Of a stretch of 64,000 nucleotides of DNA, positions 14,943 to 19,661 are shown one piece after another; the stretch's first letter is position 1, and each line of letters begins with the position of its first letter. A program made the translations under genes and the position numbers. Origin of the DNA: Shigella phage phi25-307; the sequence record MG589383; one strand, given 5' to 3'. Below the pieces are notes generated by a model. It did no database searches. It saw only the letters and a list, made by a program, of their open reading frames with translations, and was not told the DNA's origin.

Positions 14943-15401
14943 TTATAGGATGGTAGTGAGCACCTTATATAATGATTTGCCCATTACATATTCCCATTGA
15001 GAAGGTTTAATTAAAGCGAATGCATCAAATTCAGGAATCTGTCGTCCGTCTGGGAATGTATGATAGGAATTACAAACACTGTTTCTGAATTGCTCGTGCT
15101 CTACAGGGATGGTATATAGGAACAGATGAATATTCTTATTGTCTGAGTAACGATGTTCACCTAGGTCTTTCAGGAAGGCAGGGTCATATTGTGTAAACCC
15201 AGTTTCTTCTTCGCATTCACGAATAGCTGCTTCAATAGGAGATTCACCGGGCTCGACACGACCTTTAGGAATATCCCACCGATGAGCTAAAGAACCTTTA
15301 GGACGAGAACCAGTTACACGCCCCATGAATAATTCTTTATCTTCGGTAAGGAAAATAATACCAGCTGATAGTTCTTTCACTTTATTTTTCTTACTCATCA
15401 T
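14943..15401 (-). CDS. nudE: Nudix hydrolase NudE
   Basis: Nudix box GRVEPGESPIEAAIRECEEETG; start chosen at ATG 15399-15401 (AGGAA RBS; ATGATGA overlap with upstream stop). Confidence 0.85.
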   Translation of the reverse strand: MMSKKNKVKELSAGIIFLTEDKELFMGRVTGSRPKGSLAHRWDIPKGRVEPGESPIEAAIRECEEETGFTQYDPAFLKDLGEHRYSDNKNIHLFLYTIPVEHEQFRNSVCNSYHTFPDGRQIPEFDAFALIKPSQWEYVMGKSLYKVLTTIL

Positions 15402-15796
15402 CTCAAATTCCTGCATTCGGTAATAAAACGTTCAACTTCATTATTCTTGGCCTTTATCTTGTCTTTACGTTCCTGTAAACTACTTTTAACAAGATTAATA
15501 ATGATGCCTACAGTACCTCCACCAATTATACCACCAATAATACTTACGATAGTAGATGCTAATAAGATGGCGATAATATCTAGTACAGCAAAGGCACTTA
15601 CTTTAGTACTAAAAAACCATATAGACGGTACAAATATAATCCATCCTGTTATCCATTGGCACTTATTGAAAAACCTTTCAAGCTCAGCTTGAGTTGTTCG
15701 TATTACTTCATCAATAGGTTGATATCCATTAATGTATCTGTTCACGATAATACCTGCTGGCTGGTCGATTTTAAATTCTTGGCAAATATGTTTCAC
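15398..15796 (-). CDS. membrane protein with C-terminal ERFITECR motif, 132 aa
   Basis: Hydrophobic segments incl. GGIIGGGTVGIIINL; only a GTG start at 15796 with no obvious RBS, so 5' end uncertain. Confidence 0.45.
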   Translation of the reverse strand: MKHICQEFKIDQPAGIIVNRYINGYQPIDEVIRTTQAELERFFNKCQWITGWIIFVPSIWFFSTKVSAFAVLDIIAILLASTIVSIIGGIIGGGTVGIIINLVKSSLQERKDKIKAKNNEVERFITECRNLR

Positions 15797-15867: not shown

Positions 15868-16173
15868 TTATTTTCCTCGACATTCTTTAATGAAATTTTC
15901 TAGATTGGTAGATTCAATAGCTTTTTTACGAGCTTCTGCGTGTTCTTCTTCAGACAATTTACATTTATAATTGACCCAGACATTATGGTCGAAACTAGTC
16001 GTGGCATATAATAACAATGCTCCAACGAATAGCAAAAACGGTGATAAGAATACAAAACCAGGAACACCATCCATATCGTAAGCCTTTTGTAATACTGCAA
16101 CAGAAAGAGCTGCGTAAAAAGGTGATGCAAATATTGTTAAAAGACCAATTCGGTTGGTTTCGCCTAATTTCAT
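15868..16173 (-). CDS. membrane protein with C-terminal ENFIKECR motif, 101 aa
   Basis: Two hydrophobic segments; ATG 16171-16173, GAGGAG RBS; early promoter 16202-16231. Confidence 0.6.
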   Translation of the reverse strand: MKLGETNRIGLLTIFASPFYAALSVAVLQKAYDMDGVPGFVFLSPFLLFVGALLLYATTSFDHNVWVNYKCKLSEEEHAEARKKAIESTNLENFIKECRGK

Positions 16174-16201
16174 AATATTCTCCTCATGTTTTAATAGGAC
16201 T

Positions 16202-16231
16202 ACTATAACATAGTCCTATCATGTTGTAAAC
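16202..16231 (-). promoter_or_regulatory. early promoter with flanking inverted repeat
   Basis: gtaaac 16226-16231, actata 16202-16207; flanked by ataggact/agtcctat. Confidence 0.55.
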
Positions 16232-16243
16232 AGTTTTGCGAAA

Positions 16244-17200
16244 CTATTTGAAAGGTTTTACCATATGGAAATTTTGTTTGAAACGTTTGACATAATCATC
16301 ATGTCCTAAGCTTTGGTACATACTTACTACTTTGCTGTAGTTTTCCCAGGCATACTCACGGAACCAACCAGAGGTGATGCTTGTACAGACTTTTTCTAAT
16401 GCCATCATAAAACTGGCTTCAGGGTTAATTTTAAAGTCATTAGGAATCTGAGAACGTTCTAATGCTAGTACACATGATTCTTCGTATACACCGGCCAATT
16501 TGACCATTTCTGGTAATGATTCGAACTTCTCACGTGAGGTCATGACTTCAGAACCGTCTTTCATATAAAATGTATACGCTGGACGGTCTGTTAGTGCAAT
16601 GGCTTCATGAATAGTATCATGGTCATATGTATAGATATCATCTTTAAAGAACGCACTTTTAGAAGTGTCAAGAACCGGGTGAGCATAGTTCAAGGTTTCT
16701 TTCTGGCGTTTCAGCATAATTTCAGTAAGTTCATCGTTCAGTGTAACACCTTTACCACGAAGATACTGAATATGGTTCATAGTCTTTAAAAAGAACGGAT
16801 TATTTTTCTTGAAACGATGAGACATCTTAATTGCAAGACATATCTCAGGAGTTGCCCAGTAAAACCCATTCAAACAGTCTTTAGACAAATGTTTCTTGGC
16901 GTATTTTAAAAGGTCATAAGAAGACGTGAAATCTTCAGGAGTGAGTTCACCGACTAATTCACGGACATTAGTGATTGCCGGAACAATATACGCTTCAAAA
17001 TGAGTTTCGCGTCCATTATGGAAGCATTTGAAAACTTGGACATCAGGGTTATCTTGATGAACATATACACCCATCATTTGATTTTTGAATGTATTCCAAG
17101 AACCTTGGTCTGCAATAAAGTCCCAGTCACTATTTTTGATAGCGTTAGAATCAATAAGACCATGATAGTGAAGTGCACGAGAACCAATAACTAACATCAT
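16244..17200 (-). CDS. nucleotidyltransferase-like protein, 318 aa
   Basis: N-terminal IGSRALHYHGL...NSDWDF resembles the GS...DxD Pol-beta nucleotidyltransferase signature; GAGGAAA RBS. Confidence 0.55.
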   Translation of the reverse strand: MMLVIGSRALHYHGLIDSNAIKNSDWDFIADQGSWNTFKNQMMGVYVHQDNPDVQVFKCFHNGRETHFEAYIVPAITNVRELVGELTPEDFTSSYDLLKYAKKHLSKDCLNGFYWATPEICLAIKMSHRFKKNNPFFLKTMNHIQYLRGKGVTLNDELTEIMLKRQKETLNYAHPVLDTSKSAFFKDDIYTYDHDTIHEAIALTDRPAYTFYMKDGSEVMTSREKFESLPEMVKLAGVYEESCVLALERSQIPNDFKINPEASFMMALEKVCTSITSGWFREYAWENYSKVVSMYQSLGHDDYVKRFKQNFHMVKPFK

Positions 17201-17228: not shown

Positions 17229-17468
17229 TTAAATTTCACGACATGCGATATCATATTCATCCCAGAGGTCATCGTGTGAAGCCTCTACCAATGGAACGAT
17301 TGTACCATTTATGTCTTCATTATAAGGGCAAATTGTACAGTGTGCATCTTCGAATCGAATGCCTTTGTGTTCAGATTTTTTATAACGCATATCGAATATC
17401 TTTGCAAACTTTTCACGAGTAATGGTTTTACCAACCACTTTGGTTCCGATACTTTCGTAATAAATCAT
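17229..17468 (-). CDS. hypothetical small Cys-rich protein, 79 aa
   Basis: ORF track; GGAG RBS; early promoter 17497-17526. Confidence 0.55.
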   Translation of the reverse strand: MIYYESIGTKVVGKTITREKFAKIFDMRYKKSEHKGIRFEDAHCTICPYNEDINGTIVPLVEASHDDLWDEYDIACREI

Positions 17469-17496
17469 TGTGGACTCCGTTTAATTTGATAGGACT

Positions 17497-17526
17497 ACTA
17501 TAACATAGCCCTATCTTGTTGTAAAC
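17497..17526 (-). promoter_or_regulatory. early promoter with flanking inverted repeat
   Basis: gtaaac 17521-17526, actata 17497-17502. Confidence 0.55.
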
Positions 17527-17554
17527 TGTTTTAGCAAGAATAACTAGATGATAC

Positions 17555-17728
17555 TCAGCCTTGAACAGTAATACTATTATTTGATACCGAGATTGCGTTC
17601 TGGAGATTCAGTCCTGCGGTATCTTCAATCCATAATGTAACTTCTTCGCGTTCTTCTGTTGCAATTTGGAACAGGTTTTCCAGGGCAGCTACTGCCGTAC
17701 GTACAGCACAATCTAATTCACGAGACAT
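17555..17728 (-). CDS. hypothetical small acidic protein, 57 aa
   Basis: Hand-translated MSRELDCAVRTAVAALENLF...; AAGGAAATCAT-ATG RBS; below ORF-track cutoff. Confidence 0.4.
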   Translation of the reverse strand: MSRELDCAVRTAVAALENLFQIATEEREEVTLWIEDTAGLNLQNAISVSNNSITVQG

Positions 17729-17737
17729 ATGATTTCC

Positions 17738-18010
17738 TTAGCAAGTGTGAGAAGACGCAATCCAACCGCCAGTTTCGAGGCTCAGATTGTAGTCGTATTG
17801 GTAAACGTCAGCCCATTCAGCATAGCCGTTTTTTGTACAACGTTCAAGATCGGCTTTAAGCTGTCCGGGTGAATGATAGGTTCCACCCATACCATAAGCT
17901 GGATACAAGTCGAATGTTGTGTTTTGTTTATCAGCAATTTCTTTGGCAGCATCAATAGCTGCATAGATTTTTGCTACAGCTTCAGCCAATTCGGTTTGTT
18001 CTTTAGACAT
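17738..18010 (-). CDS. small protein ending GGWIASSHTC (paralog of 18020-18325)
   Basis: ORF track; shares N-terminal MSK and C-terminal G-W-x-x-SS-x-x-C with the adjacent gene. Confidence 0.6.
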   Translation of the reverse strand: MSKEQTELAEAVAKIYAAIDAAKEIADKQNTTFDLYPAYGMGGTYHSPGQLKADLERCTKNGYAEWADVYQYDYNLSLETGGWIASSHTC

Positions 18011-18019
18011 AGTGATTCC

Positions 18020-18325
18020 TTAGCACAACGCAGAAGACGAAACCCAAGCACCTTCAGTAATAACGTAACCGTTACCTTCACGCTTAACATCGCCACCATT
18101 ATTTTCAATTTCATCTTTCATCCACTGGGATACGATTTCACCCTTAGGATAATAAGTACGACCGCTACCATAATCACCTACAGAAAATGATACGGCATAT
18201 TGGTCTGCGATCTTTGTTGCTTCTTCTTCGATACGTTCAGCTTGATTCAGAAGTTTATAAATTGCATCTGAAGCGGATTCGGCATCATTAAACTCTGGTA
18301 CTTTAATTTCAATAATCTTACTCAT
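18020..18325 (-). CDS. small protein ending GAWVSSSALC (paralog of 17738-18010)
   Basis: ORF track; tandem paralog. Confidence 0.6.
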   Translation of the reverse strand: MSKIIEIKVPEFNDAESASDAIYKLLNQAERIEEEATKIADQYAVSFSVGDYGSGRTYYPKGEIVSQWMKDEIENNGGDVKREGNGYVITEGAWVSSSALC

Positions 18326-18681
18326 TTTCTACATTCCTTAATAAAGTTTTCGATTGTTTCATTTTCACGTCTAGCTAGGAGTTCATTATAACTAATCATT
18401 TGAGAAGCGTAAATCTTTTTATTTTTCTTGTTATGGTTTATAAAATCGTAGTAAAAATAGACTACAGTACAAAATGATGCGATGGATGCAAAGGCTTGGG
18501 TATACCGTAAGTCCTGCCATTGGTCTGTGAATCCACCAGTGTTCCCTATAAATCCTAACACAACGCCGTCAATAAGAAATCCGACTAATCCAAAGGCAAA
18601 TCCCATGCCAATACTCATAATAAAAATTAGAATGTTCTCGCCAAGAGAAGGCCATACGGTTAAGAGTTGAGGCTTTTGCAT
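18322..18681 (-). CDS. membrane protein with C-terminal ENFIKECR motif, 119 aa
   Basis: Hydrophobic N-terminal two-thirds; AAGGAG RBS. Confidence 0.6.
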   Translation of the reverse strand: MQKPQLLTVWPSLGENILIFIMSIGMGFAFGLVGFLIDGVVLGFIGNTGGFTDQWQDLRYTQAFASIASFCTVVYFYYDFINHNKKNKKIYASQMISYNELLARRENETIENFIKECRK

Positions 18682-19055
18682 CTTATCTCCTTAACGAATT
18701 CCATAGCTTCTTCATATTCATACTTTTTAACAGCTTCATCATACTGAGCTTGGGCTTTTGCGCACTGAACTTTCCATTCTCTTAATCGGGCTCTGTGATG
18801 ACGTCCTTGGTACCAATATCCCACCCAGTTAATAGGCATTAATAAAAATGGTACAATAAACGACCCGGCTATAATAAGTAAAAACACTGCATCAGACGAT
18901 ATAACTTCACTAGAATCTAAAACAGCTCCTATAATCATAAAGATTAAAAATGCTAAAGCTAAAATAGGGCCAAATAGTACTTCGTTTGGGATTAATTTAC
19001 GCTTGTATTCATACGCCCAGGGCTTACTTGGCATGTATAGGGTTGGCTTTGACAT
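18660..19055 (-). CDS. membrane protein with C-terminal EFVKEIRCK motif
   Basis: ORF track frame; track start is TTG; first ATG at 19053-19055 used, 5' end uncertain. Confidence 0.5.
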   Translation of the reverse strand: MSKPTLYMPSKPWAYEYKRKLIPNEVLFGPILALAFLIFMIIGAVLDSSEVISSDAVFLLIIAGSFIVPFLLMPINWVGYWYQGRHHRARLREWKVQCAKAQAQYDEAVKKYEYEEAMEFVKEIRCKSLNS

Positions 19056-19620
19056 ATTCTCTACATTCCATAATAAATTGCTCAAGGATTAAATTGTTAG
19101 TGAAATTAGGACTAACAACCATGGTTTCATAAAGCGCATCAATAGCACTTAAAGCATCAGCTCTTTTAAGCAAAGGCTTGCCTTCATACATAGTTTCAGA
19201 ATCGACGATTAACGTAAAGTAATATTTTTTATTATCGACTAGAACTTCAGTATCGATATAAAACATGTTAGACCTTAAGAGCTTATCTCTAAAACCATAA
19301 TAATCTTCAGAGCGTTCGCTGATATAGTCCCGTTCAGTGTTTAAACAACAAACAGACCATGTAGGAGCAATGAAATCAGTGAATCTAATATCATGGTCTG
19401 CAACTAGTTTAGCAATAGCTCTGATATCATGAATCATAATACCTGGGGCTAATAAAGATTTTCGGTTATTTGCATATTCAGTTGTCTCATAAGAAGACGA
19501 CCAGTACCATTTACGTCCAGTTGCAACATATCGTAATGAATCAACTAAAGACGTAGGTGGATTTACCTTATTTCGGAACTCTTCGAACATTGAGTCAATA
19601 TCATTATTTTGGTTTCGCAT
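19024..19620 (-). CDS. hypothetical protein with C-terminal EQFIMECREY motif, 198 aa
   Basis: ORF track frame; start refined to ATG 19618-19620 with AAGGAG RBS. Confidence 0.55.
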   Translation of the reverse strand: MRNQNNDIDSMFEEFRNKVNPPTSLVDSLRYVATGRKWYWSSSYETTEYANNRKSLLAPGIMIHDIRAIAKLVADHDIRFTDFIAPTWSVCCLNTERDYISERSEDYYGFRDKLLRSNMFYIDTEVLVDNKKYYFTLIVDSETMYEGKPLLKRADALSAIDALYETMVVSPNFTNNLILEQFIMECREYVKANPIHAK

Positions 19621-19637
19621 GTTAACTCCTTTATTAT

Positions 19638-19661
19638 CCAAAAGGAGGACCGGAGTCCTCC
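19638..19661 (-). terminator. intrinsic terminator
   Basis: ggaggac-cgga-gtcctcc hairpin followed by TTTTGG on minus strand. Confidence 0.55.

Follow-up and report, generated by a model that had tools for sequence, protein, structure and literature searches.

MenT nucleotidyltransferases (NTases) are controlled by small proteins encoded upstream of them and can phosphorylate the Ser or Thr hydroxyl of a protein (PMC10435456, PMC11375011). The MenA1 protein of the MenA1–MenT1 pair is 68 residues long, and a long helix suffices for neutralization (PMC10435456). Phages also encode MNT-like NTases, which are reported to make competitor cyclic dinucleotides and share the motif GS-x-AY[GAN]T-x4-SDxD, followed ~60 residues later by NP-x-h2[DE] (Ho et al., bioRxiv 10.1101/2022.06.09.495361). 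The phage sequences analyzed here establish a module of two gene families, an array of acidic small proteins with an invariant C-terminal tail and a catalytically intact NTase-fold enzyme. The tail is probably the means by which the small proteins work with the enzyme encoded downstream.

The locus lies in a 64,000-nucleotide stretch of Shigella phage phi25-307 DNA (MG589383), hereafter the window. It is Mosigvirus DNA (RB69/HX01/JS09-type T4-like coliphages), and over positions 17400-18800 it shares 97-98% identity with upwards of 130 Mosigvirus genomes. An earlier note, made from the letters of the window, had proposed that two adjacent small genes are tandem paralogues with a common tail. 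Both open reading frames (ORFs) are present on the minus strand and both products begin with MSK. Paralogue 1 (18020..18325), an RB69ORF139c-like protein of 101 residues, is acidic (pI 4.4, net charge −8) and ends in ...TEGAWVSSSALC; paralogue 2 (17738..18010), of 90 residues, ends in ...ETGGWIASSHTC. Their paralogy is borne out by BLASTP, which aligned them with E=9e-6 and 27% identity over 73 residues including the N-terminal helix region, and by the matches of both to PHROG 899 (E=2.4e-22 and 1.4e-18, respectively, at profile positions ~134-221 of 221). Searches of Pfam, NCBIfam, PADLOC and PDB sequences with the small proteins gave no match, and no extra copy was detected elsewhere in the window at E<10. 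In the RB69 reference (NC_004928.1 69737-70040), the 101-residue gene is split into RB69ORF139c (71 residues, ending ...SQWYEK) and ORF138c, and the tblastn match to this copy comes in two pieces; the split reflects a frameshift or a pseudogene, or else an error in the reference sequence.

In the annotated relative SA79RD, the region of the pair is located between e.2 and e.3, within a plastic stretch that extends from the lysozyme gene e to the tRNA genes; in Mosigvirus, tRNA genes lie ~5 kb from the small-protein genes. In T4, e.2 abuts e.3, and a search covering 129 kb of that genome (1-80 kb and 120-169 kb) detected neither a member of the small-protein family nor the enzyme.

Proteins were assigned to the family, termed F, by a terminal W-x-[S/A/P]-S-S-x-x-C, a Y-G-x-G-x-T-Y loop and an N-terminal helix with A-D. 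Both window proteins carry all of these (A40-D41, Y52-G53-x-G55-x-T57-Y58, or equivalents, and the tail), and the family HMM matched them with E=1e-22 (101 residues) and 3e-19 (90 residues). A HMMER profile search of 1.84 billion representative proteins returned 237 clusters at E<=1e-3, nearly all of 70-120 residues and with alignments reaching the last residue, and the similarity extends well beyond the T4-type phages in which the earlier note had advised looking for the tail. The two findings that it had named as speaking against its reading, a tail absent from relatives and unrelated N-terminal regions, were both contradicted. Members share a layout in which an N-terminal amphipathic helix is followed by a Y-G-(M/S)-G-(G/R)-T-Y-x-P loop, by an insert that varies and is often acidic, and by the tail, with the consensus ...EAExIADExGxxFxF..YGMGGTYxP...(variable, often acidic)...G-W-x-S-S-S-x-x-C. 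In the aligned members, W94, S97, S98 and C101 are invariant, and A40, Y52, G53, G55 and Y58 nearly so. The family as a whole is acidic (median pI 4.5, net charge −8). An AF2 model of the 101-residue protein is confidently folded (pLDDT 91.5) and the tail in it is largely ordered rather than floppy, with W94 in a strand at 93-96, a short helix at 97-100, a pLDDT of ~87, and low confidence for the last residue alone.

The tail is more strongly conserved than the earlier note had supposed, being almost invariant across the family as W-x-S-S-S-x-x-C-COOH. A terminal Cys is present in 136 of the 152 sequences retrieved, and most exceptions are truncated or one residue longer. In the 136-member set picked by the end W-x-[S/A/P/T/G/C]-S-[S/N/T/G]-x-x-C, which fixes Ser at −5 and Cys at −1 and restricts −4, Ser occupies −4 in 133 members; 69 of the 136 contain a single Cys, and Cys101 is the only conserved one. 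Some members contain the W-x-S-S unit two or three times. Tails of the F type were also observed on upstream ORFs of 52-147 residues that the family HMM matches weakly or misses (contigs L008 6666-7094; L048 2915-3349 and 2061-2219; L052 3335-3559; L053 1462-1905), with the ends ...DWNSSRC, ...HGWISSSICW, ...VSWRSSSYDC, ...SVWVTSSC and ...DWDSSSMYC; the tail seems to have been grafted onto more than one protein body.

In the window, the tail codons of paralogue 1 (W-V-S-S-S-A-L-C, 18023..18046, minus strand) are followed by a stop at 18020-18022 and then by GGA, the ribosome-binding site (RBS) of paralogue 2. Those of paralogue 2 (W-I-A-S-S-H-T-C, 17741..17764, minus strand), at which a 48-nt junction repeat (D2) is located, are followed by a stop at 17738-17740 and the GGA that is the RBS of a 57-residue ORF. 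GGA stands directly 3' of both stops, with the next ATG 10-11 nt further on (TGCTAAGGAATCACTATG, TGCTAAGGAAATCATATG). The overlap of stop and RBS (TAAGGA) that the earlier note had pointed out is thus present at both genes of the pair, and in the wider family it was found in 39 of 126 distinct tail DNAs. Across these DNAs, all six Ser codons are used at the invariant Ser positions and the Cys is encoded by TGC (82) or TGT (44), which shows that selection acts on the protein and that the tail is conserved at that level. An origin of the tail by chance, or as a DNA-level by-product of the RBS overlap, was rejected on the basis of this codon diversity and of the minority of tails with TAAGGA.

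Relatives of F were detected by tblastn in 394 phage records, largely T4-type (Straboviridae), from phages of Escherichia, Aeromonas, Enterobacter, Klebsiella, Serratia, Citrobacter, Yersinia and other hosts. Two further scans used the loop peptide YGMGGTY[YF] and capture peptide-carrying members only; their query was the 24-sequence YGMGGTY subset, the 131-sequence alignment being too divergent, and they are biased towards that subset. The scan of bacteria and archaea, with one genome for each of 185,579 species, returned a single 1.2-kb MAG contig, and the scan of viral contigs returned 42 F loci, on contigs of up to 390 kb. As far as scans with one loop-peptide pattern reach, F appears to be confined to large virulent phages.

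When every ORF at the 42 viral loci was searched with the family HMM, tandem copies proved to be the rule in the family, with 1-6 per locus. Clustering of these ORFs identified one partner, of ~300-340 residues, in 39 of the 42 loci, the remaining three being cut by the contig end; the next commonest neighbor cluster occurs in 9 loci only. The partner gene invariably shares the strand of the F genes and follows the last of them at a distance of 9-1372 bp. In the window, it encodes an RB69ORF134c-like protein of 318 residues (16244..17200, minus strand; DUF7277 + DUF7275, PHROG 2141) and lies 538 bp downstream of paralogue 2 on the same strand.

The linkage is reciprocal. Among 80 viral loci chosen by homology to the enzyme alone, 71 have at least one upstream same-strand F gene at E<1e-3 (one copy in 23 loci, two in 30, three in 16 and five in 2). 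At another four, the small ORFs are divergent but end in ...W-x-S-S-C, for a total of 75, and the other five, four of which belong to one clade, have no F gene within 4 kb. Upstream F copies are also present on three contigs reached from distant enzyme homologues, and in phiPsa374 (Otagovirus), Acinetobacter phage DLP2 and the Ralstonia jumbo phage RsoM2USA. No natural F–enzyme fusion was found among ~125 loci. The pairing holds across T4-type, rV5-type, Otagovirus and jumbo phages, in which the other neighbors differ. Within the part of the neighbors that was annotated, recurrent ones include replication proteins, RNA ligase, PNKP, phosphoesterase, Nudix and lysozyme, with an Rnl1-type RNA ligase and PNKP a few kb upstream in jumbo-phage loci.

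Two rV5-type contigs encode a SIR2-domain protein ~2 kb downstream of the enzyme (L048 7015-7830; L052 7040-7918) and a calcineurin-like phosphoesterase ~4 kb upstream of it; in jumbo-phage loci a phosphoesterase of this type comes after the enzyme. In the Escherichia phage Av-05 (KM190144.1; Vequintavirinae), a block at ~102.8-114.1 kb has the gene content and order of Mosigvirus and T4-type phages, with ORFs of 306, 687 and 492 bp followed by nudix, lysozyme, denV, internal head protein, regB-like, vs, tk and rI genes, which suggests a chimeric assembly or a mixed lysate.

The partner enzyme belongs to a family of 2212 homologue clusters, the best 120 of which are unnamed or 'hypothetical', with one spurious 'prohead assembly scaffold' label among them. 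In the 318-residue protein, DUF7277 covers residues 2-101 and the helical DUF7275 residues 120-305; a Pfam scan at E<=1 returned these two domains alone, with no DUF1814/AbiEii, and sequence and profile searches of the PDB returned nothing. DUF7277 is a Pol-beta-type NTase core with G6-S7, D25-x-D27 and E69. In 40 diverse enzymes, G6-S7-x-A9, D25-x-D27 and E69, the Pol-beta NTase signature, are invariant, as are K125, H128, K139, H174, H194-D195, H198, K225, E240-E241, C243, E248-R249 and C272 in the helical domain. The best PDB structural matches of an AF2 model (pLDDT 92.7) are all NTases, the top one being MenT1. These results demonstrate that the enzyme has an NTase fold with intact catalytic motifs. 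Its identity across very different phages is 45-75%, far above the conservation of the small proteins. As regards a possible HD nature of DUF7275, the only match was a weak one to a PHP-type HisJ phosphatase model (17.9 bits, with the cut-off at 90.2).

Phages of Streptomyces, Gordonia and Vibrio encode distant homologues of the enzyme that are shorter (248-297 residues), lack profile positions 32-95 as well as H174, C243, C272, R129, R165 and Y172, and are not preceded by a small gene of the F type. Their neighbors, a polynucleotide kinase gene in Streptomyces phage Circinus, a five-tRNA cluster in Gordonia phage Yvonnetastic, and adjoining NAD-salvage genes (NAMPT, PRPP synthetase) in Vibrio phage K460, may hint at the substrate class of the enzyme.

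Between paralogue 2 and the enzyme gene, the window contains two further minus-strand ORFs with PHROG matches. One, of 57 residues (17555..17728; PHROG 4882), is translationally coupled to paralogue 2, and the other, of 79 residues (17229..17468; PHROG 3723), lies directly upstream of the NTase gene, a position conserved in T4-type loci (cluster c27). The idea that the two are degenerate F paralogues was rejected (hhalign probability <1% each). A σ70-like promoter, TTTACG-17-TATAAT (18385..18413, minus strand), which is a consensus match only, lies upstream of paralogue 1 and within e.3, towards the 3' end of that gene, and a T4-type middle promoter is annotated at the equivalent place in the record of a close relative. 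The promoter-like sites, together with this annotation, suggest early or middle expression.

An 89-nt intergenic repeat, D1 (17444..17532, minus strand), detected by repeat search and promoter scan, carries TTTACA-17-TATAGT overlapping a stem-loop (ATAGG(G/A)CTA...TAGTCCTAT) and sits between the small-protein genes and the unit formed by the 79-residue ORF and the NTase gene. A second copy with 73% identity (16149-16237) is found downstream of the NTase gene, such that the two copies bracket this unit. A terminator is annotated in a relative at the site equivalent to 17444..17532. D1 resembles the 'promoter-early stem-loop' cassettes described for T4-type hyperplastic regions. Since a promoter/stem-loop element and two unrelated ORFs intervene in the window, the F and enzyme genes need not be co-translated.

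A different motif, E-x-F-I-x-E-C-R, is common to five neighboring proteins of predicted membrane or e.3/e.4/e.5 type (15398-15796, 15868-16173, 18322-18681, 18660-19085 and 19024-19641, all minus strand), where it is at or near the C-terminus (...ENFIKECRGK, ...ENFIKECRK, ...ERFITECRNLR; internal ...EQFIMECREYV...). Three junctions among these genes carry a 22-nt DNA repeat, D3 (TTTATTAAGGAATGTAGAAAAT, coding strand), and e.5-like proteins encoded at other T4-type loci have this tail too (IEEFIKHCREAVNG). The pattern could be a motif of the proteins, or a cassette that serves recombination or translational coupling.

Taking sequence, fold and synteny together, we propose a model, to which we assign a probability of roughly 0.4, where F and the downstream NTase-fold enzyme operate as a two-component module and the conserved tail, recognized by the enzyme, enters its active site as an acceptor or as a pseudosubstrate and metal ligand. 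Once there, a Ser hydroxyl of the tail would accept a nucleotidyl or phosphoryl group or, alternatively, the terminal Cys thiolate and carboxylate would ligate the catalytic metals as a pseudosubstrate, while the fast-evolving bodies of the paralogues could confer differing targets, specificity or timing. The model is suggested by the asymmetry of conservation, one slow enzyme being paired with many fast partners that have just the loop and the tail in common, by the need for Cys as the very last residue, by the association of the small proteins with that clade of enzymes in which the NTase domain is complete, and by the precedent of MenT, with its small upstream-encoded controllers and its Ser/Thr phosphorylation. 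The earlier note had suggested that the tail could be a modification or targeting signal; the tight linkage to an NTase-fold enzyme makes a role in modification or docking plausible. Several observations weigh against the model. The ordered tail predicted for the monomer would fit a built-in ligand or metal site, or a docking peptide, equally well; the F genes are split from the enzyme gene in the window by the promoter/stem-loop element and two ORFs; and the five enzyme loci without F within 4 kb retain every invariant enzyme residue.

A more specific proposal is that the enzyme covalently modifies the F tails, by O-nucleotidylylation or phosphorylation of Ser at −4 or −5, to produce 'armed' effectors. 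Elimination from the modified Ser and attack by the terminal Cys could possibly then yield a cyclic thioether cap. We consider this proposal possible but doubtful; if it were true, it would constitute an undescribed protein-modification system, specific to large virulent phages, in which a single enzyme serves many substrates. As to the biological role, the F and enzyme genes occupy early- or middle-transcribed accessory regions of large virulent phages, often near tRNA genes, RNA ligase or polynucleotide kinase, and this setting suggests that the module is most likely a host-takeover or counter-defense device acting on RNA, tRNA or nucleotides. The hints at RNA or tRNA as the substrate come only from gene neighborhood and are weak.

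The main rival to the tail-in-active-site model is that F proteins, by analogy with MenA1 acting on MenT1, are antitoxin-like inhibitors or regulators of the phage NTase, in which case the tail would be an unmodified auxiliary contact. The long N-terminal helix would block or reshape the active site and so restrain an enzyme with toxic potential until its activity is required. The arrangement of a small protein upstream and an NTase downstream is that of MenA–MenT and AbiEi–AbiEii, MenT1 is the best structural match of the enzyme, the long helix of the 68-residue MenA1 suffices for neutralization, and residues 15-43 of F form a conserved amphipathic helix on which A/I/L make up a heptad-like stripe. 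The way in which conserved residues are distributed, like the diversification in tandem, speaks against this role, which we regard as unlikely, if deserving of serious attention. A fold search with the F model matched no antitoxin.

F proteins might instead be independent effectors that mimic nucleic acids, or that inhibit or act as decoys for proteins of the host, such as AbiEii/MenT-type toxins or other defense enzymes. Their position next to the enzyme would then stem from a common pathway or from joint regulation and not from direct contact. The acidity of the family is in keeping with such a function, as are its rapid evolution, its tandem amplification, which recalls arms-race genes, and its location in early or middle accessory regions. 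The reciprocal linkage maintained from T4-type to jumbo phages, however, would be difficult to account for if the two were not directly tied in function, and neither a PADLOC match nor similarity to known anti-defense proteins was detected; we regard independent effectors as improbable. Still another reading, quite improbable in our view, assigns the tail and the Gly-rich loop to an intrinsic metal- or ligand-binding or oligomerization site, such as an inter-subunit metal site of terminal Cys residues, with a structural function and no signal. It draws on the predicted order of the tail, with W94 in a strand, on the sole conserved Cys and the many single-Cys members, and on the loop and tail being the only invariant polar elements, but leaves unexplained both the linkage to the enzyme and the presence of Cys as the very last residue in ~90% of members.

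Finally, it is highly improbable that F proteins are RiPP-like substrates in which Ser is converted to dehydroalanine and the terminal Cys adds to form a lanthionine/AviCys-type ring, with the S-x-x-C-COOH spacing of epidermin and a bifunctional partner enzyme as the possible catalyst: the fixed Ser at −4/−5 and Cys at −1, the several substrate-like genes per highly conserved enzyme, and the invariant C243, C272 and several His of the F-linked enzyme clade, absent from F-less distant homologues, would suit this chemistry, but the recurrent neighbors examined include no gene of the LanB/LanM/LanKC/LanD, YcaO or radical-SAM kinds, F is a folded ~90-residue domain whose 'core' is invariant and not variable, and we know of no NTase-driven dehydration. 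The C243, C272 and His set may resemble the Cys-Cys-His zinc site of LanC cyclases.

The F–enzyme module is present in hundreds of isolated large virulent phages; in the phage genome collection, 394 records match the small protein and 732 match the enzyme. Its carriers include T4-type, rV5-type, Otagovirus and jumbo phages of Escherichia, Klebsiella, Acinetobacter, Pseudomonas, Aeromonas and Ralstonia, and many have been used or proposed for therapy. Both gene families are annotated only as hypothetical proteins, and their linkage turns two anonymous families into one testable system, with the invariant terminal Cys and two Ser of F and the catalytic D-x-D of the enzyme as handles. If the enzyme acts on tRNA like its MenT relatives, or modifies F, the module would represent a new phage strategy of host takeover or counter-defense; it could also represent a new protein-modification chemistry.

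How, then, does this locus compare with systems already described? PHROG 899, to which both small proteins belong, and PHROG 2141, that of the enzyme, are both labelled 'unknown function', and a full-text literature search for RB69ORF137c-139c, phrog_899, DUF7275/DUF7277 or this module found nothing, including on the tail motif and on the linkage. Precursors of lanthipeptides and AviCys peptides share with F the ring-forming spacing of Ser/Thr and Cys (in the set picked for that end). In contrast to those systems, the gene universally linked to F is the NTase-fold enzyme alone, with no dehydratase, cyclase or decarboxylase (LanB/C/M/KC/L/D) or radical-SAM gene among the neighbors that were annotated. 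Their precursors are short and combine a conserved leader with a core that varies, whereas F is a folded domain of ~90-100 residues in which the C-terminal segment is the invariant part.

Aminoglycoside and lincosamide NTases (ANT(2'')-Ia, LnuA) act on small molecules without a partner protein, and have no detectable sequence similarity to the window enzyme. A conceptual likeness, and only that, exists to GlnD–PII, where a Pol-beta NTase is fused to a metal-dependent helical domain and acts on a small protein: GlnD, a bifunctional NTase and HD enzyme, reversibly uridylylates the ~110-residue PII on a loop Tyr and not at the C-terminus. The enzymes of Ho et al. are likewise phage Pol-beta NTases in accessory or anti-defense neighborhoods, and the SDWD tetrad of the window enzyme is identical to that mutated in the BCP1 enzyme (bioRxiv 10.1101/2022.06.09.495361). 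The spacing from GS to SDxD is 9 residues in their motif and 16 in the window enzyme, which reads G6-S7-R-A-L-H-Y-H-G-L-I-D-S-N-A-I-K-N-S24-D-W-D27, and a profile of the window enzyme had no match at E<0.01 in the Av-05 regions with Av05_0062. Identity with the published cyclic-dinucleotide synthases was rejected on these two grounds; no F-type partner has been described for them.

The MenA1–MenT1 (MenAT) and AbiEi–AbiEii systems are toxin–antitoxin pairs with DUF1814 NTases. The predicted fold of the window enzyme is that of MenT, and motifs I and II of MenAT/AbiE (G-S, D-x-D, E) are present, yet in sequence it lies outside the DUF1814/AbiEii family with its four signature motifs, and it has an additional helical domain of ~190 residues rich in invariant His, Asp, Glu and Cys. 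The F proteins differ from MenA1-, MenA3/COG5340- and AbiEi-type antitoxins, being distinguished by their invariant C-terminal motif and their arrays of 1-6 copies, and the module resides in the genomes of virulent phages rather than in bacterial chromosomes. The partner family, its terminal motif, its arrays and its restriction to phage sequence are without a described counterpart, while an NTase with a small upstream partner is of a known kind.
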